In this document: in pieces, positions 25,117 through 61,704 of the stretch
Layout: each line of letters starts with the position of its first letter
Numbering within the stretch: position 1 is the first letter of the stretch
Assembly: GCA_023145615.1 (NCBI GenBank)
Contig: JAGLDK010000008.1
Coordinates: 9,837 to 73,836, forward strand
Source of the DNA: Ichthyobacteriaceae bacterium
GTDB taxonomy: Bacteria > Bacteroidota > Bacteroidia > Flavobacteriales > JADGDT01
Direction: 5' to 3'
DNA length: 64,000 nt
Made by a program: the position numbers and the translations under genes
Notes under the pieces: model-generated
Database searches by the model: none
The model's input: only the letters and a program-made list of their open reading frames with translations
What the model was told of the DNA's origin: nothing

Positions 25117-25486
25117 AATTAATTATAGGTTAATACAAATTACAAGTTGTTTTATAAAAAAGTGGCTCTTAAAACAGTTATTGATTATACATTTTATAAC
25201 TAAAAAATCTAAAACTGTGGTTCTATCACAAATACTATACTTTTTTTATAATAGTTGAGCTATTAAAACTTTAAATAACTCTGTTTTGTTAGTTAAATAT
25301 AGGCTGATGATAAAATTGACTTTATAGCTAAAGTCAACAATTACAATTCAGTAATAAATCATAAATTTCAACATAAAAAAAACGCAAATACAGCACCGAT
25401 TTTAAATAACCATAATGCAGTATTTACGTATTTTTTTTGTTCATTTTTAAAGTAAGTTAATGCTCTAAAAATGTATTTTATTTATT

Positions 25487-27652
25487 TCAGTTAAAATTAG
25501 CCTTTGTTAACACCGTTGCACCTAAAACTTCTATCTGTGCAACATCAATCCAAGCACCCGATTTTAAACTTTCAATAGCCGCAAAACTTGCTTTAGTAAC
25601 ATTTATCAACTCATCGTAAGGTATAAGCGATACACCTTTACCCGAATTTGCACTATCAACAATTTGCTGAAACTGATTTTTATGACCTTTATCTAAACCT
25701 GTTTTCAGTTTCGAGAACCCTTTAAATCCAAAGCCTTCGGTTTTCATAAAATTATCCATAATCAAAGTCCGTTCCTGACTATAAACCTCAAGTCGTTCTT
25801 TAGAATATGATTTTGCTCCGTTTGCAAAATAATTAATTACCCCTGTCGATCCGTTTTCTAGTTTCAACAAAATAGAGGCACTATCGGTATTTTCTTTTGG
25901 ATTTTCACCCATTGCATTCATACAAACCGACTTAATTTTACTACCCGTTAAATGAACTATTAAATCCATATAATGGCAAGCTTCTCCAATAATTCGTCCG
26001 CCACCAACAGCCATATCATGCACCCAAACATTTGCAGGTATAGCACCAGCATTCATAGTTGCAATAACATTCATTTGGCTATTTCCTAGCAACGATTTCA
26101 TTTTTATAGTATGTGGAGAAAATCGTCTATTAAACCCAATCATTAACGATGCTTCGCTATCGTTATAAGCAGCTTGAATTCTGCCTAAATCAGTAGCATT
26201 TAAGGCCAATGGTTTTTCTACAAAAACATGTTTTCCTTTTCCTAAAGCCTCAATTACCATATCGGCATGAAGGTTATGACGAGTTGTTATCATTACAACA
26301 TCAACATTTTCGTCTTCTAAAACCTTGCTATAATCTGTACTACTTTTAGCAATGCCATGTTTTTTAGCAAGTGCTGTTCCGTTAACTCCTCCTGCCGAAA
26401 CTATATGCTGAATATCGGCATTAGTTTTTTCTAAAGCAGGTAACATTGTCATTTTAGTAAAGTTTCCGGCACCAACAACTGCTATTTTTCCTTTCGATGT
26501 AGAAATTGCTTTTTCAGTTACCTCAACTGTGTAATCAGGTACATTATCTTCTTTATATTTTAGTATTGTAGCTATTGATTTCGAGTTTCCAATATCTCCA
26601 TAAATTTCTTCAAAATTCTCAATATCTATTTCTTCGGTAATTAATTCTTTAACTTTTAATCGTCCTGTAGATATTGAATTCAGTACAGTTTCGAAATTTC
26701 GTTTTTCAGTCCAACGCACAAAAGCCATTGGATAATCTAAACCTTTTTGCTCGTAATTTTCATCGTATCTACCAGGACCATACGAACATGAAACCTGAAA
26801 TGTTAATTCTTTTTCATAAAATTCAGTTCTCGAAAGATTTAATCCAATAACACCAACAAGTACAATTCTACCACGTTTACGACTCATATTTGCCGCATCC
26901 GAAATTATATCGTTACTTTTTGCTGAAGCAGTAATTATAACCGCATCGGCTCCTACTCCATTGGTTTTTCCTTCTACGTATCTAACCGGATTATCTCCTT
27001 TTGCAGGATTAAAAGCTAAAACTCCTTTTTTCTTTGCAACTTCAACTTTGGCATCATCTAAATCGTACCCAATTACAGTACAACCGTTAGCCAAAAGCAT
27101 TTCGGCAGTTAGCAAACCAATTAATCCAAGTCCAATAACTACAACAGTTTCTCCATATTGCGGATTTACAAGTCGTAAACCTTGTAAACCAATTGATCCA
27201 ATTACAGTAAATGCAGCTTCTTCGTCAGTAATATTATCGGGCACATGCGCCACTAAATTCTGAGGAACCGAAACAAACTCGGCATGCTGTCCATTTGATG
27301 CAACCCTATCGCCAACTTTAAAATCTTGCACTCCTTCTCCTACTTCAACTACCCTTCCAACATTACAATACCCCAAAGGCAAAGGTTGCTCTAACTTATT
27401 AAAAACAGTTTCAATAGTTGGCATTAAACCTTCAGATTTAATTTTATCCAAAACCATTTTTACCTTATCAGGCTGCTGACGTGCTTTTTCAATTAAAGAC
27501 GCTTTACCAAATTCTACCAACATACGCTCAGTTCCTAACGAAACTAACGAACGAGTTGTTTTAATTAAAACCTGACCCTTTTTAACAGTAGGACTTGGCA
27601 ACTCTGCCAACTCAGTTTTTCCTGTTTTAAACGATTGTAATATTTGCTTCAT
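25487..27652 (-). CDS. Bi-domain oxidoreductase (MDR/zinc-ADH-like N-terminal half + Gfo/Idh/MocA C-terminal half)
   Basis: 721 aa. The N-terminal half is a GroES-like plus Rossmann domain (VVVIGLGLIGLL). The C-terminal half is Gfo/Idh/MocA-like (KIAVVGAGNFTK.., ..HVFVEKPLALN). Confidence 0.8.
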   Translation of the reverse strand: MKQILQSFKTGKTELAELPSPTVKKGQVLIKTTRSLVSLGTERMLVEFGKASLIEKARQQPDKVKMVLDKIKSEGLMPTIETVFNKLEQPLPLGYCNVGRVVEVGEGVQDFKVGDRVASNGQHAEFVSVPQNLVAHVPDNITDEEAAFTVIGSIGLQGLRLVNPQYGETVVVIGLGLIGLLTAEMLLANGCTVIGYDLDDAKVEVAKKKGVLAFNPAKGDNPVRYVEGKTNGVGADAVIITASAKSNDIISDAANMSRKRGRIVLVGVIGLNLSRTEFYEKELTFQVSCSYGPGRYDENYEQKGLDYPMAFVRWTEKRNFETVLNSISTGRLKVKELITEEIDIENFEEIYGDIGNSKSIATILKYKEDNVPDYTVEVTEKAISTSKGKIAVVGAGNFTKMTMLPALEKTNADIQHIVSAGGVNGTALAKKHGIAKSSTDYSKVLEDENVDVVMITTRHNLHADMVIEALGKGKHVFVEKPLALNATDLGRIQAAYNDSEASLMIGFNRRFSPHTIKMKSLLGNSQMNVIATMNAGAIPANVWVHDMAVGGGRIIGEACHYMDLIVHLTGSKIKSVCMNAMGENPKENTDSASILLKLENGSTGVINYFANGAKSYSKERLEVYSQERTLIMDNFMKTEGFGFKGFSKLKTGLDKGHKNQFQQIVDSANSGKGVSLIPYDELINVTKASFAAIESLKSGAWIDVAQIEVLGATVLTKANFN

Positions 27653-32096: not shown

Positions 32097-33539
32097 CTAC
32101 TTACTAAACTGAGTAAAATCATCTTTCATTGAAAGCATAAACTTTTTTTCGAATAAATAACTTAAACCTACATACAATATACCAGCAACAGCAATTTGAA
32201 TAAACAGTGTAATTGTAATTCCTAAATTAATTACTTGCCCCAAGTAATATGTTGCAACCATCATTATAATTGATATAATAAGTATTTTATAAATTTGTTT
32301 TACTTGTTTAATAATACCATAATTAAAAATATGCCCCGAATAAATAGAATTTAATATTACAGATGGAAAGGAAACAAAAGCAAAATGACTTAACAACATT
32401 ATAGTTATACCATATTTATAACTAAAATATATAGACAATGCCATTATAATTTTTTTTATAATTTCGAGTTTCAAAAACAAGTCGGATCTACCTTTTGCAT
32501 TAAGTGCTTGCAAATTCATTACACTTATTGGTAACATTGCACCCATAAGCATTAAAACCCTTAAATAAGGCACACTCTCTATCCACTTATCGGTTAATAA
32601 AAAAATTATTAAATTATCGGCAACTGCTAAAATTCCAAACATAACAGGCAATGTTACAAATGCCAACATTTTTAAACCTCTTGAAAATACTTTTACAAAT
32701 CTTTCGTTATCATCCTGTACTTTCGATAAAACAGGATAAACAATTTTACCAATAACACCTACAGTATTACTTATTGTAAGCAAATAAAACTCATTACTTC
32801 TGTTATAAAATCCCAAAGCAGCTGCGCTAAATAATTTACCAATTATAAGGTTATACAGGTTTGTAAAAACAGTATTCAATATACCCGACATTAGTAGTTT
32901 AGAACCAAAACCAAATAAGCCTTTTAACGAGTTTAAGCTAAATTTTAATTGAGGGTACCATTTACTAAACACAAACATAAATACACTCTTAAAAAAAGTA
33001 GCAACTATTATTTGAATAACTAACGCCATAACTCCGTAGCCATTATAAGCCATATAAACTCCTACAAAACCCGAAATTATTGATGATAATAAAGTAACCT
33101 TTGCTTGTGTTTTAAAATCTAATTCTTTCGATAATAAATTGTTAGGAACTGCGGCAAAAGAACCTATTAATAAATTGAATGATATTATTTTAGTAATTAA
33201 CACTAATTGAGGTTCGTTATAAAATTCGGCAATAAAATTTGCACTAAAAAATAACAACGCAGTCATTAAAGCACCTAAGAGTAGGTTTAGGTAAAAAACA
33301 GAAGATTCGTCAATATGAGTTATTTTTTTACGTTGTATAAGAGCAGCTCCAAAACCGCTATCAATAATGGTTTGTCCTAAAGCAGAAAATACAGCAATCA
33401 TTCCTATCAAACCAAATTCTTTTGGCGATAATATACGGGCAAGTATTAACGAAACTATAAAAGTTACTAACTGTCTTCCAAACTTTTCCATTATTGTCCA
33501 GAATACTCCTAATAATGCTTTTTGCCTAAGATTTTCCAA
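32097..33539 (-). CDS. wzx: Wzx-type oligosaccharide flippase (MOP/PST family)
   Basis: 480 aa with about 12-14 TM segments and the PST-family N-terminus ..FWTIMEKFGRQLVTFIVSLILARILSPKEFGLIG. Confidence 0.85.
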   Translation of the reverse strand: MENLRQKALLGVFWTIMEKFGRQLVTFIVSLILARILSPKEFGLIGMIAVFSALGQTIIDSGFGAALIQRKKITHIDESSVFYLNLLLGALMTALLFFSANFIAEFYNEPQLVLITKIISFNLLIGSFAAVPNNLLSKELDFKTQAKVTLLSSIISGFVGVYMAYNGYGVMALVIQIIVATFFKSVFMFVFSKWYPQLKFSLNSLKGLFGFGSKLLMSGILNTVFTNLYNLIIGKLFSAAALGFYNRSNEFYLLTISNTVGVIGKIVYPVLSKVQDDNERFVKVFSRGLKMLAFVTLPVMFGILAVADNLIIFLLTDKWIESVPYLRVLMLMGAMLPISVMNLQALNAKGRSDLFLKLEIIKKIIMALSIYFSYKYGITIMLLSHFAFVSFPSVILNSIYSGHIFNYGIIKQVKQIYKILIISIIMMVATYYLGQVINLGITITLFIQIAVAGILYVGLSYLFEKKFMLSMKDDFTQFSK

Positions 33540-33638
33540 ATATCATATTTTATAAGCACTAATTAATATAAGTTAAAACACTACTTTATAAAGTTTAATT
33601 TATTGTATTGTTTTATACTTATTAACTAGCCTTGTAAT

Positions 33639-34865
33639 TTATAGCTCATTAATTTTACTAAGCACGCGCTGAGTATTATTGAAATCATTATACTTAAAAA
33701 ACAATTTATAAATATCTTTATATCTCTCATCTACCGATTCGGAAGAAGGATAATTACTGTTTTGTAAAGTCTTAATTAAGTCGTTAAACGAATAACAAAT
33801 TTCTCCTGGAAATACATCCTTTAAATCATACACAAATCCATGTTGACTATTTACATAATGATCGTAATCATAAGCAAAAGAAATAACTGTTTTATTCAAA
33901 TATAAAGCATCAATATATGTGCTTGAATAATCCGAAATTAAAATATCCGACTCCCTAGTAAGTATATTCATATTAGAAATCATACTTGTTGATAAATCTA
34001 TAATATACTCATTGTCAATTATTTTTTTGAAAATATCAATTGGCGGATTAAAAGGATGATACCTAATTCCTAGTAAATAATTATTATCTTTTAAAAACTT
34101 CTTTAATATTGATAATTCTTCATTTGTAAAGTTATAATAATAGCCACCCACAGTACTATCTTTGTACGTTGGAGCATACATAATTAATTTTTTATCACCT
34201 TTTATAACTCTTAATAAACTAAGTTCTTTTTTTAGTTCATCTGGAAGATTCTTATCTTCTAACTTTAAAAAATCATTTCTTGGCAATCCGGTTTCCCAAA
34301 AATTCTCATCAGGAGTATTAAAAAACACTTTCTTTAAAATTTCTTTATTATCGGTTGATGAAGCTATAATAGAATGATGCTTCATTTCTTTCTCTAACTC
34401 CTTATTCATAAAACCAACTTCAGGATTAGAAAGATCTTTAATTATTATTCCATGCCAAAGGTTTACTATATTTCTATATTCGGGATGAGTAAAACGGAGT
34501 TTAATACTTTTAAATTCATAAGATATTGAATGTTGAATAATTATTTTCTTAGATTTTAAAAGATACCAATACGCAACCAACGACGTCATTTTTACCTGCT
34601 TAACACTTTTAGAGTTTCCTAAAGAAAGTTTTTTATTCCTGAATAATACAATTTTTTGTATATCATGGTTATTCTTAACACCCTCGAATAAGGCTAACGA
34701 ATTATCACTTAAATCTCCATCTCCCAAAAAGTAAACAGGAAAAATCCAGTAATCTTTTCTTTTTTCAAAAAAGCCATCTAACAGATTAAATACTACATTT
34801 AATAATAATCGTACACCCCAAACAAAACGATTAAAAATAGCTGATATAATTTTTGTTATTTTCAT
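33639..34865 (-). CDS. CDP-glycerol glycerophosphotransferase family protein (TagB/TagF-like)
   Basis: 408 aa with TagF-family C-terminal motifs (..YAPTYKD.., ..LISDYSSTYIDALYLNKTVISFAYDYDHY..). Confidence 0.8.
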   Translation of the reverse strand: MKITKIISAIFNRFVWGVRLLLNVVFNLLDGFFEKRKDYWIFPVYFLGDGDLSDNSLALFEGVKNNHDIQKIVLFRNKKLSLGNSKSVKQVKMTSLVAYWYLLKSKKIIIQHSISYEFKSIKLRFTHPEYRNIVNLWHGIIIKDLSNPEVGFMNKELEKEMKHHSIIASSTDNKEILKKVFFNTPDENFWETGLPRNDFLKLEDKNLPDELKKELSLLRVIKGDKKLIMYAPTYKDSTVGGYYYNFTNEELSILKKFLKDNNYLLGIRYHPFNPPIDIFKKIIDNEYIIDLSTSMISNMNILTRESDILISDYSSTYIDALYLNKTVISFAYDYDHYVNSQHGFVYDLKDVFPGEICYSFNDLIKTLQNSNYPSSESVDERYKDIYKLFFKYNDFNNTQRVLSKINEL

Positions 34866-34894
34866 AAAACAATGTCAAAATTTTTATTAATAGA

Positions 34895-35030
34895 TTATTT
34901 ATTCTCCTGCTTTAATTTTTCACCTTCCATATTATATACTTCTATTTTTAATTCTGAAAAGATAATTTCATACCTATCCCTTAAGTGTACTAAAATGTAT
35001 TTTTACAGGTATCGCATGCCACTAAAAGTC
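34895..35030 (-). pseudogene. Decayed 3'-terminal fragment of a second TagD/ECT-like cytidylyltransferase gene
   Basis: Minus-strand translation of 34972-34895 gives YEIIFSELKIEVYNMEGEKLKQENK*. The intact gene ends ..YDIIFSELRREVQNMEEWKLKQS* (35184-35261). 16 of 22 residues are identical, and the nucleotide similarity is visible by eye. An in-frame stop lies upstream (35003-35005) and there is no start. Confidence 0.55.
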
Positions 35031-35183
35031 AATCAAAAAGTATCAAGATCAGTTTAAAAATATAGAGCACGCAAATTTATTCGCTATGCTCTTAATTTAT
35101 CATTGATACAACCAAAAAAATAAAAACTATATTTTGGTTGCTATAAAACTTATTGTATTATGTGGATTATGCCTTACTTATAG

Positions 35184-35672
35184 TTACGATTGTTTTAATT
35201 TCCATTCTTCCATATTTTGCACTTCTCTGCGTAATTCTGAAAAAATAATATCGTACGAATTCTTTATAATATCACGTTTAGTACTAGTTGTACTTACAGT
35301 TCCGGTATATGGCAGATATACAACTTCCTTACCTTCTTGATTTTGCATCCAATCTAAACCCTCTAAGTATTTATCTTTCCAATCATCGCCAATTGTTACA
35401 ACATCAATCCCTAGTTCTTCAAGTTGATTAATATCTGTAAGTTTTTCTTGTTTTACAGCTTTATAAACTCCTTTCATTGATTGTATAATTCTTAACCTTT
35501 GCTCGAAAGGAATAACCGGAGGCATACCTTTATAATCAGCTATTAACTCGTCAGTACTTACTCCAACAATAAGTTTATCACCATATTCTGCCGATTTTTC
35601 AATAATATTAACATGCCCTATATGAAATAAGTCCCAAGTTCCTGATGTGTAAACAATTCTATCTTTTTTCAT
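35184..35672 (-). CDS. Cytidylyltransferase family protein (TagD / ethanolamine-phosphate cytidylyltransferase-like)
   Basis: 162 aa with HxGH-type motif SGTWDLFHIGH, plus GVSTDE and IGDDWKDKY. The substrate is not assignable from sequence. Confidence 0.8.
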   Translation of the reverse strand: MKKDRIVYTSGTWDLFHIGHVNIIEKSAEYGDKLIVGVSTDELIADYKGMPPVIPFEQRLRIIQSMKGVYKAVKQEKLTDINQLEELGIDVVTIGDDWKDKYLEGLDWMQNQEGKEVVYLPYTGTVSTTSTKRDIIKNSYDIIFSELRREVQNMEEWKLKQS

Positions 35673-36735
35673 TACGTAAATTATTTTGAATTTCTACTAT
35701 TTTATTAACTACTATATCTAATTCTCTTTTATTTTGAAGTCCAATATGCGACACTCTTAAAAGCTCACTACTTCCACTTGGCATTACATATATATTTTCT
35801 TTATTAAGCTGGTTACATACATTTTTACTGTTTTCAACATAAAATCCAGTAACACACGACGAAGGACTTTCAGCACTTAAAGTCCAATTATTATTTTTAC
35901 ACAATTGTCTGAAATACAATGCGTTTTCCTTTACTTTATTTAACGTTTTTTCTGCTCCTTCTTTCTTCAATTTCAACAACCTTGCATGTAGCTGATAAAA
36001 CAAAACTGTAGCCGGACTAAATGGTGTTTGACCTCTTTGCAAATTGCTTAGATTTTCTTCCATGTCTAAATAATAGTTATTACTACTAAATCCTTGCTTT
36101 AATGCTTTTTCGGCAATAGCTACAAACGATAATCCTGGAGGAATATTTAATCCTTTTTGACTACTAACAACAGCCATATCAATATCCCAGTTTTTCATAC
36201 TGAAATCATCAGTCATAAAAGAACTAATTGCATCAACAACCAATCGTACATTGTTATTTTTACAAGTGGTTGATATTTTATCTAAATCATATAATTGCCC
36301 CGATGATGTTTCGTGATGCTGACACAACAACACATCGTAATTGCCTTTATCTATAATATCATTTAATTTTGTATAATTAATATCTTTACCAAATACAACT
36401 TTAAACTCGTCGGCATTTATATTATGATATTTGCATAAATCTCTCCATCTGTTTCCAAAAGTCCCTCCATTAATAACCAAAACTTTATTGAAATTTGAAA
36501 CATAATTAACAACCACCGATTCCATTGCCGCAGTACCTGCCGATGTATAGGTAATAACTTTACCATCTTTTACATCTAACAATTCCTTTAATATTTCCTC
36601 GTTTTCGTTAACCATTTTCGAAAATTTACTTGTGCGCATATATGGAATTTGTTTAGATCCTAATGCCAAAATATCATCTTCAATTAAACCTGGAAATGCA
36701 AAGGTTAGCATTTCATTATCTGAATTTTCAAACAT
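35659..36735 (-). CDS. Class-V (AGXT/serine-pyruvate-type) PLP aminotransferase
   Basis: 358 aa with the PLP-lysine context VVSSQKGLNIPPGLSFVAI that is typical of class-V aminotransferases. It overlaps the next gene by 14 nt. Confidence 0.8.
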   Translation of the reverse strand: MFENSDNEMLTFAFPGLIEDDILALGSKQIPYMRTSKFSKMVNENEEILKELLDVKDGKVITYTSAGTAAMESVVVNYVSNFNKVLVINGGTFGNRWRDLCKYHNINADEFKVVFGKDINYTKLNDIIDKGNYDVLLCQHHETSSGQLYDLDKISTTCKNNNVRLVVDAISSFMTDDFSMKNWDIDMAVVSSQKGLNIPPGLSFVAIAEKALKQGFSSNNYYLDMEENLSNLQRGQTPFSPATVLFYQLHARLLKLKKEGAEKTLNKVKENALYFRQLCKNNNWTLSAESPSSCVTGFYVENSKNVCNQLNKENIYVMPSGSSELLRVSHIGLQNKRELDIVVNKIVEIQNNLRNEKR

Positions 36736-37186
36736 AATCTTCTCCTCTCATTGTTAATACTGGCGACATTCCCTCTTTAAATCCAAATTTTGCATAAAAT
36801 GGTTCGCTACCAGGAATGGCAGTTAAAAACATTTTCATAAAACCTCCTTCTATACTTTTTTTGGTAGTTAAATCAAGTAATCCCTTTCCAACTCCTAATT
36901 TTCTATAATCAGGATTAACCATAACATCAAGTATGTAATACATGTAAACATTATCGGTTAAAAGTCTTGCGTAACCAATTAACTCATTGTTTTTTAATGG
37001 ATTTCGTGCAGTAATTGCAACAGTATTTTCAAGCGAAATCTTTTCTTTTTCAACAGTTCGTAATGAATAATGAAAAACATTTTCGGGTGGAAATTTATCT
37101 GATGTAGATTTTTTCATTTTTTCCATCAAATTAAAAAGTTCGTCAGTATTTACCTCATCATTAAATTTATAGGTTATTTTATTCAT
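36728..37186 (-). CDS. GNAT family N-acetyltransferase
   Basis: 152 aa with acetyl-CoA motif A (YRKLGVGKGLL). Confidence 0.75.
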   Translation of the reverse strand: MNKITYKFNDEVNTDELFNLMEKMKKSTSDKFPPENVFHYSLRTVEKEKISLENTVAITARNPLKNNELIGYARLLTDNVYMYYILDVMVNPDYRKLGVGKGLLDLTTKKSIEGGFMKMFLTAIPGSEPFYAKFGFKEGMSPVLTMRGEDYV

Positions 37187-37188
37187 AA

Positions 37189-38457
37189 TTAATTTATCAT
37201 ATCAGGTGCAAAAACAGGAATATCATGAACTTCAGATACATCAAATCTTTCAACATGACTATCATCTATAAATATTGATTTATTTCCTTTTATATATTTC
37301 GATTTTTTATCTTTTCTATCTAAATGAATAACCTCATCAAACAAAGTACTTAACCTATATTTTTTCAACGATTCGTTAATATCAAAAGCATGTCGGGTAA
37401 TTAAAGTAACTTTTTTACCTTCGTTTATATACTGATAAAGTTTAGCTACCAAAGAAGTATTAACCTTGCCTTCAATTATTAAACAGTCATCAAAATCAAC
37501 ATAAACCTTATCGAAATCGTAATCCATATTTACTACAACTCCTAATGCCCTATCAATTTCAATACTAGCTTTATTCTCAACAATACTAACATCAAAATCA
37601 AAAGAATCGAAAATACTCAGTAGTGCAAAATTCACTCCTTTATATCTGTATAACAACGATGATCCTCCCATACGAGACGCAACCTCTAACAACGATAATT
37701 TATTATTTATATCTCTTTTAACTTGATAAAACCAAGCTCCACGAAACTCCATTTTAGAATTTATTGTGCGTGCAATTTCCTCAAATTCAAATCGTTCGGT
37801 TACATCTAACGAAATTGTATTAACCGATATTCCTGTTCGTGTACGCCTACGAGGACGTGGACCAGAAAACATCAGTTCTCCTTTTTTATTAGTAAAACAA
37901 TCAACTGTATATTCCTCTCCTGGTAAGTAATCCGATATAATACAATCACCCCATTCCTCTATATGAGATATTCCCTCATTTAAAGTTTTTATAACCTTTG
38001 CACCTCTCGATCCGTACCCAACATTGGGTTTTATAAATACCGGAAAATTTTCAACATCAATAATATTATCATACACTCTTGGCACATTCATTACCGAATT
38101 TAACAGAGTATATGTTAGTTTTTTTGAAGAACATATTCTACTAGTTTCAACCGACGATGCAATAACTTTGCAATTAAATTCTTGCTCTAATGGTTTTAAA
38201 AAAGAAATTGCAATATCCATAGCCGGATATATTGCTTCAATTTTATTATCTGAAATTATTTTTTTAAAATGCTCTACAAAATCAACGTCATTAATATTGG
38301 GCACATTTCCAATATAATTTTCGTAAACAAACTTACCGTGATCGTTAACACTACTAGCGCCAAATAACTCAACATGACGACTATGCTTTAACGAACGATG
38401 TATTTCTAAACCAACTTCCGATCCGCAAGGAAAAACTAAAACTTTAATTTTATTCAT
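37189..38457 (-). CDS. ATP-grasp ligase fused to a C-terminal HAD-like phosphatase module
   Basis: 422 aa. The first ~310 aa follow an ATP-grasp pattern (..FPVFIKPNVGYGSRGAKVI.., ..EYTVDCF.., ..LLEVASRMGGS). The last ~105 aa carry HAD-like motif I KVYVDFDDCLI and motif IV-like SIFIDDS. Confidence 0.7.
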   Translation of the reverse strand: MNKIKVLVFPCGSEVGLEIHRSLKHSRHVELFGASSVNDHGKFVYENYIGNVPNINDVDFVEHFKKIISDNKIEAIYPAMDIAISFLKPLEQEFNCKVIASSVETSRICSSKKLTYTLLNSVMNVPRVYDNIIDVENFPVFIKPNVGYGSRGAKVIKTLNEGISHIEEWGDCIISDYLPGEEYTVDCFTNKKGELMFSGPRPRRRTRTGISVNTISLDVTERFEFEEIARTINSKMEFRGAWFYQVKRDINNKLSLLEVASRMGGSSLLYRYKGVNFALLSIFDSFDFDVSIVENKASIEIDRALGVVVNMDYDFDKVYVDFDDCLIIEGKVNTSLVAKLYQYINEGKKVTLITRHAFDINESLKKYRLSTLFDEVIHLDRKDKKSKYIKGNKSIFIDDSHVERFDVSEVHDIPVFAPDMIN

Positions 38458-39565
38458 TGGTAATTAATTTAACTATGTAACTAATTTCTTCTTCTGATAG
38501 GTTTGGATATATTGGCAAACAAATTACCTTATCAGCTATTTTAACTGCATTTTGTAAATTATTTCTATTAGCCGATGGCAATCCTTTATAAGTTGGAAAA
38601 TCGCTTATAAGCGGATAAAAATATCTTCTTCCATACACATTATGATCCTTTAATTTTTCATAAAGCTCATCTCTACTAAGTGTGTAATCGCTATTAACAT
38701 AAATCGGGAAATATGCATAATTATGCTTAACTCCTTCAATATCTTTTAAACAACTAATACCTTCAACACCCTTAAATTTTTCTTTGTATTTATATGCAAT
38801 ATCCTTACGTTGTTGAATTTGCTTATCAATTGTGTTAAGCTGTAATAATCCGTATGCCGATTGTAGTTCATTCATTTTAGCATTTATACCTGGTGCTACC
38901 ACAGTGGTTTCATCTGCAAATCCAAAATTCTTTAAAAAGTCAATTCGTTTTTTTGTTCCCTCATCATGACATATAATTGCCCCACCTTCTATTGTATTAA
39001 ATGTTTTGGTGGCATGGAAACTTAATATTGATAAATCTCCATAATTTAGCACACTCTGTCCGTTAATTTCAACTCCAAAAGCATGTGCCGCATCATAAAT
39101 AATTTTTAAGCCATAGGTGTCGGCAATACGTTCTAGTTTTTCAACCTCAACCGGATTTCCATAAACATGTACCGGAACAATTGCAGTAGTTTTTGGAGTA
39201 ATTAAACTCTCTATTTTATCTATATCTAAATTTCCGTAAACGGGATCTATATCGCAAAACACCGGAGTTATTCCATTCCAATGCAAAGCATGAGTTGTTG
39301 CAACAAAAGTATATGGAGTTGTAATTACCTCTCCCGAAATTCTAAGTGTTTGCAAAGCAGTAATTAAAGCAAGAGTTCCGTTAGAAAATAACGACACATA
39401 TTTTACCCCAAGATGTTTTGCTAATTTATCCTCAAATTCTTGATGATATTTACCATTATTAGTCAACCATTTATTTTCCCAAATATCCTCTAGTTTCTCT
39501 ACAAATTCTCCTAAATCTGGCATTGTTGGTTGAGTTACCAGTATCGGTTTTTCTCTTTTCTCCAT
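38450..39565 (-). CDS. DegT/DnrJ/EryC1/StrS family NDP-sugar aminotransferase
   Basis: 371 aa with typical family features (..SNGTLALITALQ.., ..SFHATKTFNTIEGG..). Confidence 0.9.
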   Translation of the reverse strand: MEKREKPILVTQPTMPDLGEFVEKLEDIWENKWLTNNGKYHQEFEDKLAKHLGVKYVSLFSNGTLALITALQTLRISGEVITTPYTFVATTHALHWNGITPVFCDIDPVYGNLDIDKIESLITPKTTAIVPVHVYGNPVEVEKLERIADTYGLKIIYDAAHAFGVEINGQSVLNYGDLSILSFHATKTFNTIEGGAIICHDEGTKKRIDFLKNFGFADETTVVAPGINAKMNELQSAYGLLQLNTIDKQIQQRKDIAYKYKEKFKGVEGISCLKDIEGVKHNYAYFPIYVNSDYTLSRDELYEKLKDHNVYGRRYFYPLISDFPTYKGLPSANRNNLQNAVKIADKVICLPIYPNLSEEEISYIVKLITNE

Positions 39566-39603
39566 TTGTATATAGTTGTTTCTTATTAGTTGAATCTAAA
39601 TTC

Positions 39604-40986
39604 TTATTTTACTTTCTTAAATACATTATACTTATTATTGATACATTCAATAAAATCATAATTATCTTTAAGTTTTTTAGTTACTAAAGAATCTTCTACA
39701 GCATAAAAAATTAAATAACTATCTTTTTCTATTTGATCTAATACCGTATTGTAAGCTCTTGTTCGGGGAAAAGTGTAACCTAATTTTTTATAATTTGCCG
39801 ATCTATAATTGCCATAATAATATTGGGCAGGACTAATTTTTAAATAAACTTTACTGTTTTTTGGCACAACATCTACTAATACCTTACTTACTGCAATATC
39901 TCTATTATACTTATGTATTGTGTTGTTATATTTACTATACCAACCGTAAGCTCCAAAAACAATAACCGTATAAATTGTTAAGTATTTTAAAACCTTATTT
40001 ATACTGAATTTATATACTATAATACTGTAATTTAATTTATTTAATGCAATGGCTAGTATAAATATCGACCATGGTATTATTGCATAGAAGTAATACAAAA
40101 TAACTGAAAAATAAATACTTAGCATGGTACTTAAAAAAGCCAAAATAAAAAATACTATGTATTTATCAATCTTAATAAATTTTAGTAAATAGAAGCTAAA
40201 AGGAACAAAAATAAATACCGTTGGAATTAGCACAAAACTTGCTAAGTACATAAGAACACTTTGTCCTCCTGTAATTTTTATAGCACCTTCTACTCCCATA
40301 ATTCCAACCAAACGCTTAAGATAATCCCAAAAATCTATTTGATTAAAATGTATTACATACATTAATATTAATACAGTAAAGAAACCTGATTTAAACAGTG
40401 AAAAATTTTTAATAATTCTTTTGTCATCATCCATTACAACCCAATAAAAAATTGGAATTGCAAAAGCTAATGCATACTGCTTTGTATAAAAAGACAGGAA
40501 TAGAAACACGCCCGATAAAAAATATTTTTTCTTGAATAAAAACAATGTTGTTAATAGCATAAACAACAACATTAAAGGTTCTAAATAAATACTTATACCA
40601 CCTAAAAACAATGAGTAAAGCATGAAAAGTATAATCGTAAATGTTTTTATTTGTTGTTTTATTTTCAATAACGTAAGTACCTTATAAAACACAGCAACAC
40701 TTATAAGCTGTATTGCAAATACTACTAAAAAAAAATATTGAGTTTCAATTTCGGATGTTAATAAATAAGGTATTCCATAAAAATAAATTGCCAACGGATT
40801 ATATTCTACCGCCATTTTGTAATAAGGAATTCCATCTGCAAAAACATCTCTTGCAATAGAAATGTAATACGATCCATCTACCCCAACATTTGGATAGTTT
40901 AAAGAAAGCAACACCATTAAAATTACAAATATCAACCACACTAATTGTGACACTTTATTTGTTTTACTATCAAAAAAAGTTTTCAT
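39604..40986 (-). CDS. GT-C-like polytopic membrane glycosyltransferase candidate (ArnT/PMT_2-like)
   Basis: 460 aa with many hydrophobic segments, a first-loop motif VDGSYYISIARDV reminiscent of the DExxY loop of GT-C enzymes, and a ~100-aa soluble C-terminus. It lies directly downstream of an ArnC/GtrB-type GT2. Confidence 0.5.
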   Translation of the reverse strand: MKTFFDSKTNKVSQLVWLIFVILMVLLSLNYPNVGVDGSYYISIARDVFADGIPYYKMAVEYNPLAIYFYGIPYLLTSEIETQYFFLVVFAIQLISVAVFYKVLTLLKIKQQIKTFTIILFMLYSLFLGGISIYLEPLMLLFMLLTTLFLFKKKYFLSGVFLFLSFYTKQYALAFAIPIFYWVVMDDDKRIIKNFSLFKSGFFTVLILMYVIHFNQIDFWDYLKRLVGIMGVEGAIKITGGQSVLMYLASFVLIPTVFIFVPFSFYLLKFIKIDKYIVFFILAFLSTMLSIYFSVILYYFYAIIPWSIFILAIALNKLNYSIIVYKFSINKVLKYLTIYTVIVFGAYGWYSKYNNTIHKYNRDIAVSKVLVDVVPKNSKVYLKISPAQYYYGNYRSANYKKLGYTFPRTRAYNTVLDQIEKDSYLIFYAVEDSLVTKKLKDNYDFIECINNKYNVFKKVK

Positions 40987-40999
40987 GTTGGTTAGTAGT

Positions 41000-41941
41000 T
41001 TATTTTTTATTTTTAATGATAAAACCAGGACGATCTTTTACTTCATCATAAATACGCCAAATATATTCGGCTACAATTCCTAATGAAAAAAGTATTAATC
41101 CGCTGAAAAAAGAGAAGATAACAGCTATTGAAGTCCATTCTGGTAAATTTTCATCCCAATATTCTGTATTTCCGAATAATTTCATATAAATATATATTGC
41201 AATTATTACTATTGATGTTGCAATAAAGAAAAAACCTATATTGGTTATCATTTTTATTGGCCAAGTTGAACTAGAAAAAAAAGCATCTCTAAACAACTTT
41301 ATTTTTTTACTAAAAGACCACCTCGATTTTTCATTTATACCCTGCATACGTTGGTACGACAATAAATAAGGAGAGAATCCTAAGCGTAAAACTTCAATTA
41401 TACTAACTGTATTTATATGATGAATTTTGTTGTTTAATATATCAACAACCTCTCTATCTAAAAAAAAAGTATCTGCACCTCCATTCGGAAATTTTATGTC
41501 TGATGTATAGTTCATAACCTTATAAAAAAGATTAGAAAACACATCACTAAAAAAACCATCATCGCGAGATTCTCTATGAGGAATAATTATTTTCTCGCCT
41601 TGTTGCCAAACCTTATACATATCAACTATTGTTTGATATGGCATTTGTTCATCATCATGAATTGGCAAAGCACAATTACCATTACTAACCTGTAATCCTG
41701 CAAATGTGGCATAATGAGCTGTGTAATTTTTACTTAATTGGTAAGCGTGTACATTACTATTTTCATGCTCAAGTTTTTTTGCAACCTCATAAGAATCATC
41801 TTTTGATCCATCATCAATAATGATAAATTCAAAAGGAATATTATTCTTATTAAGTAGCTTAGTTATATCGTTATAATTTTTAACAATTCGTTGGCTACTA
41901 TAATATGACAATAGTATTATGCTTAATAAATTGTTATTCAT
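41000..41941 (-). CDS. Polyprenyl-phosphate glycosyltransferase (GT2; ArnC/GtrB/DPM1-type)
   Basis: 313 aa with a GT-A domain (IILLSYYSS.., IIIDDGSKDDS), two C-terminal TM helices and the signature tail LGIVAEYIWRIYDEVKDRPGFII. Confidence 0.8.
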   Translation of the reverse strand: MNNNLLSIILLSYYSSQRIVKNYNDITKLLNKNNIPFEFIIIDDGSKDDSYEVAKKLEHENSNVHAYQLSKNYTAHYATFAGLQVSNGNCALPIHDDEQMPYQTIVDMYKVWQQGEKIIIPHRESRDDGFFSDVFSNLFYKVMNYTSDIKFPNGGADTFFLDREVVDILNNKIHHINTVSIIEVLRLGFSPYLLSYQRMQGINEKSRWSFSKKIKLFRDAFFSSSTWPIKMITNIGFFFIATSIVIIAIYIYMKLFGNTEYWDENLPEWTSIAVIFSFFSGLILFSLGIVAEYIWRIYDEVKDRPGFIIKNKK

Positions 41942-42006: not shown

Positions 42007-43173
42007 TTAATTTCTATAAAACTCAATCACGGCATTTATTACTCTATCAATTTCTGCACTTTTTAAATCGTAATACATTGGCAATCTTAATAATCTACTT
42101 GTATAAAGTTCCGATTGTGGTAAATCAACCTTGCTATTACTTTTTAAGTAAAACGGACTTTCATGAAGACATAAATAATGAAATACACTGTGTATATTTT
42201 TCTGTTTTAAAAAATTAATCAACTCAGTTCTTTCATCAACCGACTTGGTAATTAAGTAAAACATATGTCCGTTGCTTGTGGCATAATCTGGAATAAATGG
42301 CAGTTTAATTTTGTTTTCAATTAACTTAAGTCCATTATAATATTTATTCCAATTCCAAATACGTTTGGCTTGTATTTTGTCAATGTTTTCGAGTTGTGCA
42401 TACAAAAAACCTGCCACTGTTTCCGAAGGTAAAAATGATGATCCTGTATCAACCCAAGTATATTTATCAATTTCTCCTCTAAAAAAAGAAGCTCTATTTG
42501 TTCCTTTTTCCCAAATAATTTCGGCACGTTCAATTAGTTCGTCATCATTTACAACAAGTAAACCTCCTTCTCCCGAAATAACATTTTTTGTTTCATGAAA
42601 AGAGAAAGTTCCTAAATGCCCAATGCCTCCAAGTGGTTGTCCTTTATAAAAGCTTTCAACTGCCTGAGCAGAATCTTCAACAACCTTAATATTATATTTT
42701 TTAGATAAAGCCATAACCTTATCCATATCAACTGCAACTCCTGCGTAATGAACCACAACAATAGCTTTAGTTTTACTAGTTATTAATTCTTCTATTTTAT
42801 TAACATCAATATTTGGTGTTTCCACCTCCGAATCGGCAAATACAATTTTAGCACCTTGTCTGAAAAAAGCTAATGCCGTTGACACAAAAGTGTAAGAAGG
42901 AATTATAACCTCATCTTCAGGTTTAATGTCTAACAACATTGCACACATTTCTAAAGCAGTGGTGCACGATGTGGTTAATAATGTTTTTTTGAAACCATAT
43001 CTTTCTTCGAAAAAATGCTGGCATTGTTTTGTATAAATTCCATTACCCGATAATTGTCCGGAACTAACTGCTTTTTGAATATAATTAGTTTCGTTTCCGG
43101 TTAAATACGGTTTATTAAATGGTATTTCTTTAAATGTTTCTTTATTCTTTAAAGTGTCCGATTTAGTATTCAT
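42007..43173 (-). CDS. WecE/ArnB-like NDP-4-keto-sugar aminotransferase (DegT family)
   Basis: The ORF track gives 42007..43311. The family-typical N-terminus (..IPFNKPYLTGNETNYIQKAV..SGNGIYTKQC..) begins right after the internal ATG at 43173, so I take that as the start. The upstream 46 codons look non-coding. Confidence 0.85.
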   Translation of the reverse strand: MNTKSDTLKNKETFKEIPFNKPYLTGNETNYIQKAVSSGQLSGNGIYTKQCQHFFEERYGFKKTLLTTSCTTALEMCAMLLDIKPEDEVIIPSYTFVSTALAFFRQGAKIVFADSEVETPNIDVNKIEELITSKTKAIVVVHYAGVAVDMDKVMALSKKYNIKVVEDSAQAVESFYKGQPLGGIGHLGTFSFHETKNVISGEGGLLVVNDDELIERAEIIWEKGTNRASFFRGEIDKYTWVDTGSSFLPSETVAGFLYAQLENIDKIQAKRIWNWNKYYNGLKLIENKIKLPFIPDYATSNGHMFYLITKSVDERTELINFLKQKNIHSVFHYLCLHESPFYLKSNSKVDLPQSELYTSRLLRLPMYYDLKSAEIDRVINAVIEFYRN

Positions 43174-43366
43174 GATTACTCTATCGTAGGTAATATTTTT
43201 ATATTTTAAACTCGAATTATTATTTTTACAATTCGATAAAATTGATTTATTAACAACTACTTTCATAAACAAGTGTTTTATACTATATCGAAATATATTG
43301 AACCAATACACTCAATAAAGAAATGATAATTTAGTTTGGCTATAGATATTTAAGATATTTAAAACC

Positions 43367-44527
43367 TTAAATATCAACCCCTAATACATTGGATGGATTT
43401 ATTATTTGTTTTTTTAGTGGATGAGAATAGACTACTACTCCAACACGTTTTCCTGATTCATCTAACGATTCGTAATCGCCAACAGAAAGCAACATCATAG
43501 ACTTTACAATACAATTATTACTGTACAAGCTATCTTTATAAATCTTATCTTTTTCTGGTTTTGAATAAACAAAATAAACTCCCGAATATTCGTTTTTACT
43601 TGGTGGGTAATTAATCGGTGTAAATTTATTGAATGCAACATCAATAACACCTTTTACAAAATCGTATCCTGTAGAAAGCTGAACTAAATCAGACCCTATA
43701 AAATCTCCTCCCATACGGGCTCCTATTTCTACAATATATATTTTATTATCGGCTGTAATTAATATTTCAGAATGTCCTGCTCCATTAACTACGCCTAATG
43801 CACTAAGTGCTTTTTTTATTGTTGAAAAAATATTTTCTTTTAAAACATCAGTAATATTTGCAGGCTGATGATGCTCAATTTCAACAAAATACGGAGTACC
43901 AGTTGTAACCTTATCAGTTACTGCCAACATATAATGTTTTCCTTTAAACGATATTGTTTCTACCGAAAACTCTCGGCCTTTTATAAATTCCTCAACTATA
44001 ACAGTTTCAGAAAATTGAAGAGATTTTTCAATAGCCTTATTTATATCCGAATTTTTATTAACATAAGTAACTCCTCTCGATCCCGAACTATCAGTAGGTT
44101 TAACAACAATAGGCAACTTTAACTTATTATTATAAATATTAAAATCAGGAGTATTACAGGCTGTAAAAAGTGGACACAATAACCCCGATTTGCTTAAAGC
44201 CTTACGCATTTGATATTTATTTGTTGTTAGCAACGATAATTCTACAGGATTACCAACAAGCCCCAATTTATCTGCAACATAATTTACAGTAGGCATTGCC
44301 ATATCAGATGCAATTGAAGTAATTGCATTAATACCAACTTTGGTACAAATTTTTAATATTTCGTTTTTATCAAGTATCGATATAGAATAATAAAAATCAG
44401 CAATATCTTCTACTACGTTTCCTTCTTTCCAAGCAAACACATGAGTTTCGTAACCCAACTCTTTAGCTTTATCAACCAAAGGTTTTTGTAAATAACTTGC
44501 TCCTAAAATTGCTAATTTTTGTTTCAT
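43367..44527 (-). CDS. ATP-grasp domain protein (carboxylate-amine ligase type)
   Basis: 386 aa. It has a pre-ATP-grasp N-terminus KLAILGASYLQKPLV and an ATP-grasp core (..LPIVVKPTDSSGSRGV.., ..EFSVETIS.., ..VEIGARMGGDFI). Confidence 0.75.
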   Translation of the reverse strand: MKQKLAILGASYLQKPLVDKAKELGYETHVFAWKEGNVVEDIADFYYSISILDKNEILKICTKVGINAITSIASDMAMPTVNYVADKLGLVGNPVELSLLTTNKYQMRKALSKSGLLCPLFTACNTPDFNIYNNKLKLPIVVKPTDSSGSRGVTYVNKNSDINKAIEKSLQFSETVIVEEFIKGREFSVETISFKGKHYMLAVTDKVTTGTPYFVEIEHHQPANITDVLKENIFSTIKKALSALGVVNGAGHSEILITADNKIYIVEIGARMGGDFIGSDLVQLSTGYDFVKGVIDVAFNKFTPINYPPSKNEYSGVYFVYSKPEKDKIYKDSLYSNNCIVKSMMLLSVGDYESLDESGKRVGVVVYSHPLKKQIINPSNVLGVDI

Positions 44528-44726: not shown

Positions 44727-46073
44727 TTATAATCTTCCGTCAACTAATTTTCTATCAACAAACGATTTTGTATCGAAAATAACAGTATCACTATCTTTCC
44801 ATTTCTTAAAATTAAGTGTTTTAAATTCGTTATGGGCAACTGCTACAATAACCGAAGAATAAACCTCTCCGTTAAGATGATCTAATACATCAATACCGTA
44901 TTCGTGCTTTACTTCCATAGCATTAACCCACGGATCGAAAATATCAACATCCATACCAAATTGTTTTAATTCTTGATAAATATCAACAACTCTAGTATTT
45001 CTTATATCCGGACAATTCTCTTTAAAAGTAACACCTAAAATCAACGATTTTGCACCTTTAATTTGAACTCCTTTATCTATTAATAATTTTACAACCTTAT
45101 TAGCAACGTGCATTCCCATTGAATCATTTACTCGTCGCCCTGATAAAATTACATTTGGATGATATCCTAACGATTTTGCTTTGTGAGCTAAGTAATACGG
45201 ATCAACTCCTATACAATGTCCGCCAACTAAACCTGGCTTAAACGGCAAGAAATTCCACTTTGTACCTGCTGCTGCTAACACATCGTTTGTATCAATATTC
45301 ATTCTTTCAAAAATCAATGATAATTCATTTACAAATGAAATATTAACATCACGCTGAGCATTTTCAATTGCTTTTGATGCCTCAGCAACCTTCATGCTAG
45401 GTGCCTTATGTGTACCTGCTAAAATTATTTTATTATATAAATCATCAACTAAATCTGCAATTTCAGGAGTAGATCCAGAAGTAACCTTTTTAATAGTTGT
45501 AAGCGTATTAACTTTATCTCCCGGATTTATTCGTTCTGGAGAATATCCACAATAAAAGTTATTATTAAACTTCAATCCTGATTTTTTCTCTAAAACCGGC
45601 ACACAATCCTCTTCGGTACATCCAGGATATACAGTAGATTCATAAATAACAATATCTCCTTCAGATAATACACTTCCTACCGTAGCCGATGCGCTTAACA
45701 GTGGTTTTAAATCGGGCGCATTAAAATCATCAATCGGTGTTGGAACAGTTATTATGTACACATTGGCATCCTTAATGTCTTTTAATTTGCTAGACAATAA
45801 CAATCCATCATCCTCAAAGCCATCAATCTGAGCTTCTTCTTTAATTTCATTATCTTTTCCAACAGTTTGAAAAACAAGAGATTCTTTTAATACTGCGTGC
45901 AAATATTCATCTGCAACTTCTAAAGTATCATCATGTCCTTCATTAAGCCTTTTTACTCTTAATTCATTAATATCGAATCCAACTACTGGATACATCTTTG
46001 CAAATTCAACAGCCAAAGGCAATCCAACATATCCTAATCCGATTACTGCAATTTTAAGCTCGTTAACATTCAT
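44727..46073 (-). CDS. NDP-sugar 6-dehydrogenase (TviB/WbpO/WbpA-like UDP-N-acetylhexosamine dehydrogenase)
   Basis: 448 aa with N-terminus KIAVIGLGYVGLPLAVEFAK and the catalytic-Cys context GLVGGHCIGVDPYY. It is the first gene of the minus-strand locus. Confidence 0.9.
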   Translation of the reverse strand: MNVNELKIAVIGLGYVGLPLAVEFAKMYPVVGFDINELRVKRLNEGHDDTLEVADEYLHAVLKESLVFQTVGKDNEIKEEAQIDGFEDDGLLLSSKLKDIKDANVYIITVPTPIDDFNAPDLKPLLSASATVGSVLSEGDIVIYESTVYPGCTEEDCVPVLEKKSGLKFNNNFYCGYSPERINPGDKVNTLTTIKKVTSGSTPEIADLVDDLYNKIILAGTHKAPSMKVAEASKAIENAQRDVNISFVNELSLIFERMNIDTNDVLAAAGTKWNFLPFKPGLVGGHCIGVDPYYLAHKAKSLGYHPNVILSGRRVNDSMGMHVANKVVKLLIDKGVQIKGAKSLILGVTFKENCPDIRNTRVVDIYQELKQFGMDVDIFDPWVNAMEVKHEYGIDVLDHLNGEVYSSVIVAVAHNEFKTLNFKKWKDSDTVIFDTKSFVDRKLVDGRL

Positions 46074-61612: not shown

Positions 61613-61704
61613 TTGGAAATGTTTTATTTATACAAACCCAAATGTAAACTTTATTTTATAAATAATAATAGTGTAGCCAAATTACATTTTATTTTAAAAC
61701 ACAA

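Follow-up and report, generated by a model that had tools for sequence, protein, structure and literature searches.

For the HS:2 capsule of Campylobacter jejuni, a transaminase (Cj1437), a decarboxylase (Cj1436), an amidoligase (the C-terminal domain of Cj1438, Cj1438C) and a HAD phosphatase (Cj1435) have been described, and the serinol phosphate of this route is used only for amide formation (PMC11800397). A similar set of chemistries is encoded by five minus-strand open reading frames (ORFs) at positions 35184-39565 of a 64,000-nt stretch of DNA from an Ichthyobacteriaceae bacterium, the whole of which is called the window here. Both sets contain a pyridoxal phosphate (PLP) enzyme leading, or in the window predicted to lead, to a phosphorylated amino alcohol, and an ATP-dependent ligase followed by a HAD phosphatase that would remove the handle phosphate. 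A preliminary description of the cassette, which named the C. jejuni enzymes correctly, had taken the five genes as one candidate pathway. Comparison with related loci shows that the cassette consists of two separable, uncharacterised modules that are juxtaposed. Module A comprises a DegT-type aminotransferase and an ATP-grasp ligase fused to a HAD domain (ATP-grasp-HAD), and module B comprises a GNAT acetyltransferase, a class-V aminotransferase, a cytidylyltransferase (CT) and a TagF-like gene next to the cassette. In contrast to HS:2, the ligase and the phosphatase of the window are fused, their genomic partner is a DegT sugar aminotransferase rather than the small-molecule one, and for the amino-alcohol phosphate, activation with CDP and linkage via the phosphate, not as an amide, are predicted. 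Module A would mirror the logic of Cj1438C and Cj1435 with reversed polarity.

Three further kinds of systems can be compared with the cassette. In the TagD/TagF (TarD/TarF) systems and in the Gram-negative TagF-like capsule polymerases, a small PF01467 CT makes a CDP-alcohol, which a PF04464 enzyme transfers as a phosphodiester, and module B has the same two components. However, the cassette CT scores below the TagD cut-off and its family is paired with a class-V aminotransferase in nearly all related loci, here also with a GNAT, and therefore the head group should carry an amino or acetylamino group. Phosphonate and phosphocholine modules (Ppm-Ppd-AEPT-PntC, Fom1-type CyTase, LicC/LicD) likewise combine an aminotransferase, a CT and LicD/TagF-type transfer to a surface glycan, and the CyTase of Fom1 belongs to the same family (PF01467) as the cassette CT. 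Module B differs from these in having neither a phosphoenolpyruvate (PEP) mutase nor a decarboxylase, and its aminotransferase falls in a separate clade, with 24% identity to the 2-aminoethylphosphonate (AEP)-type paralogue of one related locus (L074). Finally, in pairs of DegT and N-acyltransferase (VioA/VioB, DesI-type) and in the FkbH/acyl carrier protein routes for N-glyceroylation, a DesI-like aminotransferase is followed by an enzyme that acylates the new amine. Module A would follow the same scheme, but here acylation is predicted for an ATP-grasp ligase that carries a HAD phosphatase as a fused domain. To our knowledge no enzyme of this architecture has been characterised. Both modules are uncharacterised variants of known glycan-tailoring kinds, and neither is described in the searchable literature.

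Two modules in one cassette

The layout of the cassette was taken from the ORF list of the window, and the junctions were read in the sequence. In the direction of transcription, the genes encode a DegT/DesI-like protein that is a probable 4-aminotransferase for nucleoside diphosphate (NDP)-4-keto-6-deoxyhexoses (38450-39565, 371 aa), the ATP-grasp-HAD protein (37189-38457, 422 aa), the GNAT N-acetyltransferase (36728-37186, 152 aa), the class-V, AGXT-like aminotransferase (35659-36735, 358 aa) and a stand-alone CT (35184-35672, 162 aa). The first two genes overlap by 8 nt (38450-38457), a 2-nt gap follows (37187-37188), and the last two junctions are overlaps of 8 nt (36728-36735) and 14 nt (35659-35672). 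Coordinates and junctions were exactly as given in the preliminary description, and its family assignments for all five proteins were borne out by Pfam and NCBIfam, with every quoted peptide motif present. One overlap may be apparent only: since the homologues of the class-V aminotransferase align only from residue 8-9 of the window protein, its true start may be Met9, and the overlap with the GNAT gene would then become a 16-nt gap.

The tight packing ends on both sides, with a 38-nt gap to a membrane-protein gene upstream and a 318-nt gap (34866-35183) between the CT and the TagF-like gene (33639-34865, minus strand) downstream. Scans of 33400-40000 for promoters and terminators gave no more sites than shuffled sequence. 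The 318-nt intergenic stretch is AT-rich and carries an imperfect inverted repeat (CAACCAAAA...TTTTTGGTTG) directly past the stop codon of the CT gene, and none of its sequence was called as a consensus terminator. Overlaps of the size found in the cassette are ordinary in operons, and they are evidence for co-transcription, not for a shared pathway.

For the comparative analysis, an alignment of the class-V aminotransferase was scanned against one genome per species, which gave 80 loci in which each ORF was scored against the window proteins, and neighbour families were obtained by de novo clustering with Pfam annotation of the cluster representatives. An alignment of ATP-grasp-HAD was scanned against metagenomes, and 77 of the 80 loci obtained were analyzed. 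The modular split is thus based on more than 160 related loci.

In the genome loci, a CT was encoded directly after the class-V aminotransferase in ∼78 of 80 cases, and the two genes mostly abut or overlap. ATP-grasp-HAD and the cassette-type DegT never adjoined this pair in the 80 genome loci, and conversely the class-V aminotransferase was found in none of the 77 metagenome loci. The closest homologues of ATP-grasp-HAD (73 and 67% identity) also had no GNAT, aminotransferase or CT beside them. A TagF-like (PF04464) or LicD gene could be identified at most three genes away in 55 of the 63 loci that had at least three called genes on both sides of the aminotransferase. Orthologues of the TagF-like protein of the window (54% identity) are encoded directly after the CT in the related loci L007 and L009, where the two genes abut, unlike the 318-nt gap of the window. 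Orthologues of the GNAT (53-70% identity) were restricted to the clade of the window, with five loci including L007 and L009, and were always located directly upstream of the aminotransferase. In addition, a Vibrio owensii locus encodes a 150-aa GNAT directly upstream of the aminotransferase and a TagF-like protein three genes downstream. None of these six GNAT-bearing loci contains an ATP-grasp-HAD gene. Placement of the GNAT in the ATP-grasp module, following the N-acetyl-aminoacyl logic of another locus (L169), was also considered and was rejected, as its orthologues always precede the class-V aminotransferase.

The aminotransferase/CT pair ranges from Bacteroides lipooligosaccharide (LOS)-core clusters to Verrucomicrobiota and Vibrio owensii. 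In Bacteroides the gene order is Kdo-kinase-like, TagF-like, aminotransferase and CT, in LOS-core-type clusters with GT9, DUF4254 and MsbA-like genes. The CT family is highly conserved, with homologues mostly of 157-177 aa and 58-77% identity among the matches listed; one Bacteroides CT sequence occurs on 175 contigs and one from Odoribacter on 712.

Module A has its own context. DegT is encoded directly upstream of ATP-grasp-HAD in 49 of 67 metagenome loci, and in three of the related loci with this arrangement RmlA and RmlB are encoded as well, in some cases along with a 2,3-dehydratase and a ketoreductase. The L007 counterpart of DegT (70% identity) precedes a hexapeptide acetyltransferase, whose position is taken by ATP-grasp-HAD in the window. 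The separation of the two modules means that there is no comparative support for a ligase-phosphatase acting on the product of the class-V aminotransferase. The observation of a tightly packed cassette in the preliminary description thus stood, while its interpretation as a single five-gene pathway did not; as a lesson for annotation, close packing of genes is here not equivalent to a single pathway.

Module A: predicted sugar aminotransferase and ligase-phosphatase fusion

The DegT protein matched Pfam DegT_DnrJ_EryC1 with 345.6 bits, and its best PDB sequence match was DesI (2po3, 1.5e-68), although it stayed below the cut-off of the DesI equivalog TIGR04427 (323.9 versus 650 bits). In the fusion protein, the ligase extends from residue 1 to ∼300, with the Pfam matches (ATPgrasp_Ter, ATP-grasp_3 and ATP-grasp_4) confined to residues 51-287, and the HAD part covers residues ∼316-422 (nt 37192-37512). 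Beyond residue ∼290 no Pfam match was obtained, and a profile search with the HAD module against PDB sequences yielded matches at chance level only.

The HAD nature of this C-terminal module, proposed earlier from its motifs, is supported by alignment, structure model and fold search. In an alignment with 24 homologues (50-73% identity), D321, D323 and D324 of motif I, K385 of motif III and D398/D399 of motif IV were invariant, so that the catalytic aspartates are kept, and T354 of motif II was conserved in at least 90% of the sequences. An AlphaFold2 model of residues 300-422 had a predicted local distance difference test (pLDDT) score of 89.3, and the top matches in a Foldseek search of this domain against the PDB were all HAD phosphatases, namely MDP-1 (E value 3.1e-4, template modelling score 0.68), KDN-9-P phosphatase, KdsC and T4 PNK phosphatase. 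Judged from alignment and model, the module is a genuine capless HAD domain, phosphatase-like and of predicted phosphatase activity. The fusion itself is conserved, since among at least 3855 homologues (E ≤ 1e-5) the best 120 were full-length proteins of 415-444 aa with 97-100% query coverage. For the full-length protein, a model with pLDDT 90.7 and a predicted template modelling score of 0.88 was obtained, and Foldseek returned the uncharacterised ATP-grasp protein 2pn1 as best match, followed by biotin carboxylases, PurK, PylC and RizA. Literature searches combining ATP-grasp with O-antigen or N-acyl gave nothing on the ATP-grasp-HAD family, which is large and uncharacterised and which Bacteroidota and Proteobacteria encode in O-antigen and capsule loci.

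The following reaction sequence is proposed for module A. The DesI-like aminotransferase would produce an NDP-4-amino-4,6-dideoxyhexose, and the ATP-grasp ligase would replace the usual N-acetyltransferase by ligating a carboxylic acid to the sugar amine. Because the HAD active site is invariant, the acid is expected to enter in phosphorylated form, for example as 3-phosphoglycerate or O-phosphoserine, and to be dephosphorylated by the fused HAD domain after ligation, which would leave a free hydroxyl on the N-acyl group. The product of module A is probably an N-acylated 4-amino-6-deoxyhexose.

Directly downstream of ATP-grasp-HAD, 24 of 76 loci had LicD, 13 a pyruvyl transferase, 7 a methyltransferase and 4 a TagF-like gene, and in 30 of 54 loci at least one of the three genes that follow encoded LicD, TagF or a CT. 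As these enzymes (LicD, pyruvyl transferase, methyltransferase, TagF) all modify hydroxyls, one may speculate that the phospho-head group of module B is attached to the hydroxyl exposed by module A, and that the juxtaposition of the modules in the window is functional.

In five of the related loci, Fom1-like CT-PEP-mutase fusions together with a thiamine pyrophosphate enzyme resembling phosphonopyruvate decarboxylase (Ppd), an iron-containing alcohol dehydrogenase and TagF or LicD are located beside DegT/ATP-grasp-HAD. From their gene content these sets look like glycan-tailoring modules of the 2-hydroxyethylphosphonate type (CMP-HEP). That genuine phosphonate modules adjoin some ATP-grasp-HAD genes agrees with Rice et al. 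2019 (PMC6697681).

Module B: predicted product and alternative explanations

The GNAT matched Pfam Acetyltransf_1 with 45.5 bits, and its PDB relatives, all weak matches, were small-amine acetyltransferases only. The class-V aminotransferase matched Aminotran_5 with 83.7 bits and had 3f0h, an uncharacterised protein, as best PDB match (1.1e-57). The Schiff-base lysine K194 as well as D168 and R327, which are typical class-V transaminase residues, were invariant in 16 homologues. For the CT, CTP_transf_like (PF01467) gave 59.3 bits against a gathering cut-off of 21, and the HxGH motif is present in TWDLFHIGH. Its PDB matches were, in order, ethanolamine-phosphate cytidylyltransferase (ECT; 3elb, 1.3e-20), the CyTase domain of Fom1 (5x3d, 7e-18) and TagD (1coz, 1e-16). 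The possibility that it is the TagD orthologue was rejected, because its TIGR01518 score (80.5 bits) lies below the cut-off of 165.4, and the locus has its own TagD as a fusion with GpsA, which scores 183.5 bits on the same model. It is classified here as an ECT/TagD-like CT outside the TagD equivalog. The TagF-like protein, the likely transferase of module B, matched Glyphos_transf with 183.2 bits (gathering cut-off 22.1) and did not reach the equivalog cut-offs of TarF, TarL and TarB.

Taken together, it is very likely that module B provides a CDP-activated amino-alcohol phosphate that is transferred by TagF/LicD-type enzymes. This corresponds to one of the two readings in the preliminary description, in which a CDP-activated (N-acetyl)amino-alcohol phosphate is made for the TagF-like transferase. 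The reading holds for three of the five genes together with the TagF-like gene, as the GNAT, aminotransferase and CT co-occur with the latter. Because the class-V residues are kept and the enzyme is coupled to a phospho-alcohol-type CT and to CDP-alcohol phosphotransferases, the aminotransferase should aminate a phosphorylated carbonyl metabolite. The ∼52 loci with a stand-alone CT share no oxidoreductase, kinase or other enzyme that would supply a substrate; therefore the substrate should be a central metabolite, with dihydroxyacetone phosphate (DHAP) as the obvious candidate. Transamination of DHAP would give serinol phosphate, from which the CT would form CDP-serinol with CTP. Serinol phosphate is the 2-amino analogue of glycerol-3-phosphate and the hydroxymethyl analogue of phosphoethanolamine, in agreement with a CT whose PDB matches include both ECT and TagD. 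The GNAT would N-acetylate the amine, a step that would be specific to the clade of the window and whose place in the order is provisional, and the TagF-like enzyme would transfer the phospho-amino-alcohol as a phosphodiester to a glycan acceptor that is likewise presumed. That the amino-alcohol phosphate is serinol phosphate specifically is a plausible proposal, held with somewhat less than even confidence.

An additional architecture was found in ∼26 more distant Bacteroidales loci, in which the same aminotransferase family (43-47% identity) occurs together with LicD and with a fusion protein that joins a more TagD-like CT to a Gfo/Idh/MocA oxidoreductase. The fusion protein has ∼460 aa, and is encoded directly after the aminotransferase and next to LicD, as in L084 (11061-12449). 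No description of this architecture was found. It suggests an alternative order of reactions, in which glycerol phosphate would be activated, oxidised at C2 and transaminated to the same CDP-serinol. The long CT ORFs beside these distant aminotransferases had also been considered as Fom1-like CT-PEP-mutase fusions, which was rejected, as they are the CT-Gfo/Idh/MocA fusions.

The explanation by two modules, taken as a whole, is judged to be about equally likely to be right or wrong, and several points weigh against it. The class-V aminotransferase reached no NCBIfam equivalog cut-off, and its best structural relative 3f0h is itself uncharacterised. The characterised DHAP transaminase Cj1437 presumably belongs to a different aminotransferase class, and therefore no homology support for DHAP as substrate is available. 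The role of the Gfo/Idh/MocA fusion is a guess, and the fusion could instead indicate a sugar or inositol skeleton. One recognised TagF-like enzyme in the window stands against two CDP-alcohol synthases, the cassette CT and the GpsA-TagD fusion, so that it might use CDP-glycerol instead, and the 318-nt gap separates it from the cassette. CDP-serinol and phosphodiester-linked serinol phosphate are unreported in the searchable literature: searches for serinol phosphate with cytidylyltransferase returned the C. jejuni amidation papers only, those for N-acetylserinol, GroNAc and 2-aminoglycerol nothing relevant, and those for serinol with Bacteroid* unrelated papers only, and a paper on B. thetaiotaomicron LOS mentions no aminotransferase or cytidylyltransferase. 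For module A, the Foldseek search with the full-length ATP-grasp-HAD model gave generic ATP-grasp relatives only, without a functional clue.

Among the alternatives, the one that survives best, though still unlikely, is that module B produces a different CDP-activated amine, such as CDP-ethanolamine, a CDP-amino-pentitol or amino-inositol, or CDP-phosphoserine. It would agree with the best PDB match of the CT being ECT, with the Gfo/Idh/MocA partner in ∼26 loci, whose family members typically oxidise sugars or inositol, and with phosphoethanolamine being a common substituent of lipopolysaccharide (LPS) cores. However, no phosphorylated carbonyl metabolite is known that would give phosphoethanolamine by transamination, the aminotransferase retains its class-V transaminase residues K194, D168 and R327, and the neighbourhood of the pair contains no conserved kinase or sugar-phosphate gene.

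Also rather improbable is an explanation in which the GpsA-TagD fusion supplies the TagF-like enzyme with CDP-glycerol, and the CDP product of the cassette goes to an unrecognised transferase or never reaches the glycan. The locus does hold a bona fide CDP-glycerol synthase, as judged by its profile scores, as well as a single recognised CDP-alcohol transferase, and the latter is set apart from the cassette by the 318-nt gap. Yet the 54%-identical TagF-like orthologues of L007 and L009 abut a cassette-type CT, with no GpsA-TagD found in the available sequence there, and TagF-like or LicD genes are found near the aminotransferase/CT pair in 55 of 63 loci.

A single five-gene pathway like that of C. 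jejuni, in which the class-V enzyme makes an amino-alcohol phosphate, the ATP-grasp ligase uses it to amidate a uronic acid and the HAD domain removes the phosphate, is very improbable. The Campylobacter precedent is real, the PLP enzyme, the ATP-dependent ligase and the HAD phosphatase chemistries are all present and co-transcribed, and a uridine diphosphate (UDP)-sugar dehydrogenase is encoded at 44727-46073. But ATP-grasp-HAD does not occur with the class-V aminotransferase in any of the genome or metagenome loci or among its closest homologues, its DegT partner yields an amine and not a carboxylate, and the CT and phosphotransferase partners of the aminotransferase would be superfluous for amidation. 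The corresponding reading of the preliminary description, uronic acid amidation with the class-V product, thus received no comparative support, as ATP-grasp-HAD is coupled to DegT instead.

Least probable is that module B serves AEP tailoring via CMP-AEP with PEP mutase (Ppm) and Ppd encoded elsewhere: PhnW/AepZ models do match the aminotransferase at an E value of 7.8e-38, and the CT has the CyTase domain of Fom1 as its second-best PDB match, with PF01467 CyTases being common in phosphonate clusters (PMC6697681), but the scores are far below the equivalog cut-offs (130.8 versus 360.8 bits for TIGR03301, 77.6 versus 400.8 for TIGR02326 and 93.7 versus 296 for NF010006), Ppm and Ppd are confined to a single one of 84 related loci and are missing from the 64-kb window, and the genuine phosphonate modules near ATP-grasp-HAD keep Ppm, Ppd and the iron-containing alcohol dehydrogenase clustered. 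In the single locus with Ppm and Ppd, L074, a separate aminotransferase of 24% identity, a Ppd and a CT-Ppm fusion are encoded beside a 46%-identical orthologue of the window enzyme. The earlier view that an AEP route is unlikely is in agreement with these results, according to which the class-V enzyme is not PhnW/AepZ.

The most far-reaching form of the two-module explanation is that the trio of class-V aminotransferase, ECT/TagD-like CT and TagF/LicD is an unrecognised and widespread pathway for CDP-serinol (CDP-2-amino-1,3-propanediol), which puts serinol phosphate, or N-acetylserinol phosphate in the clade of the window, on surface glycans, and that ATP-grasp-HAD is a new N-acylating class that uses a phosphorylated acid and exposes a hydroxyl for phosphodiester decorations. 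In this combined form it is tentative and would be unlikely to hold in every part. If it were true, the CDP-serinol trio would act, among other targets, on the LPS/LOS core of many gut species of Bacteroides, Odoribacter and Prevotella, and serinol phosphate would be the third such head group beside glycerol-phosphate and phosphoethanolamine. If module B makes CDP-serinol or another new CDP-amino-alcohol, an unreported charged or zwitterionic substituent would be defined, together with the donor nucleotide for the conserved trio in LPS-core clusters of abundant gut Bacteroidales. Core charge in gut Bacteroidales influences innate-immune recognition and resistance to antimicrobial peptides.

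The surrounding polysaccharide locus

The five ORFs are part of one long minus-strand, Wzx-type polysaccharide locus, which extends over ∼16.9-46.1 kb of the AT-rich window (∼30% GC) and encodes an initiating transferase, glycosyltransferases, a flippase and the UDP-sugar dehydrogenase, among other genes. RmlA and RmlB were searched for in the window; no RmlA was found, and the only candidate for RmlB was a distant epimerase/dehydratase at 60617-61618.

A second aminotransferase/ATP-grasp pair is encoded on the minus strand of the same locus and was identified with Pfam and NCBIfam. The WecE-like protein (42007-43311), a predicted dTDP-4-amino-4,6-dideoxygalactose transaminase, reached 553 bits on NF008687 (cut-off 375), and the ATP-grasp gene directly upstream of it (43367-44527) encodes a D-Ala-D-Ala-ligase-like protein with an ATP-grasp_4 match of 75.5 bits. 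A similar pair is adjacent in L009. The pair suggests that a second N-aminoacylated 4-amino sugar is present in the same glycan, and because the window holds two such pairs, N-acylation of 4-amino-6-deoxyhexoses by ATP-grasp enzymes appears to be a recurrent design. As called, the WecE-like ORF has a GTG start and an N-terminal extension of ∼60 aa, which is probably not translated, as the NF008687 match begins at residue 63.

Between the two aminotransferase/ATP-grasp pairs, at 39604-41941 on the minus strand, an ArnC/PgfS-like GT2 glycosyltransferase of the polyprenyl-phosphate sugar synthase type is followed by a multi-pass membrane protein of 460 aa without a Pfam match. These two genes resemble a GtrB/ArnC and GT-C pair that would glycosylate the polymer in the periplasm.

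At the distal end of the locus, the fusion of GpsA (NAD-dependent glycerol-3-phosphate dehydrogenase) and TagD is encoded on the minus strand at 16887-18242. It contains the Pfam domains NAD_Gly3P_dh_N/C and CTP_transf_like and matched TagD 1coz at 1.6e-52. Such a protein would lead from DHAP to CDP-glycerol by itself. The fusion had been overlooked in the preliminary description. In another of the related loci (L092), the genes for DegT, ATP-grasp-HAD and two TagF-like proteins lie beside a homologous fusion.

The closest relative of module B, in L007 (1-12760), lies together with three or four sulfotransferase genes and a run of DegT, the hexapeptide acetyltransferase, a glyoxalase-like protein, an FkbH-like protein and an acyl carrier protein. 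Such a run points to N-glyceroylation via the acyl carrier protein, and the predicted glycan of L007 would be heavily sulfated and acylated. In the window itself, a bi-domain oxidoreductase of 721 aa, with zinc-alcohol dehydrogenase and Gfo/Idh/MocA domains, adjoins a heparinase II/III-like protein of 633 aa at 23215-27652 (minus strand), inside the biosynthetic locus.

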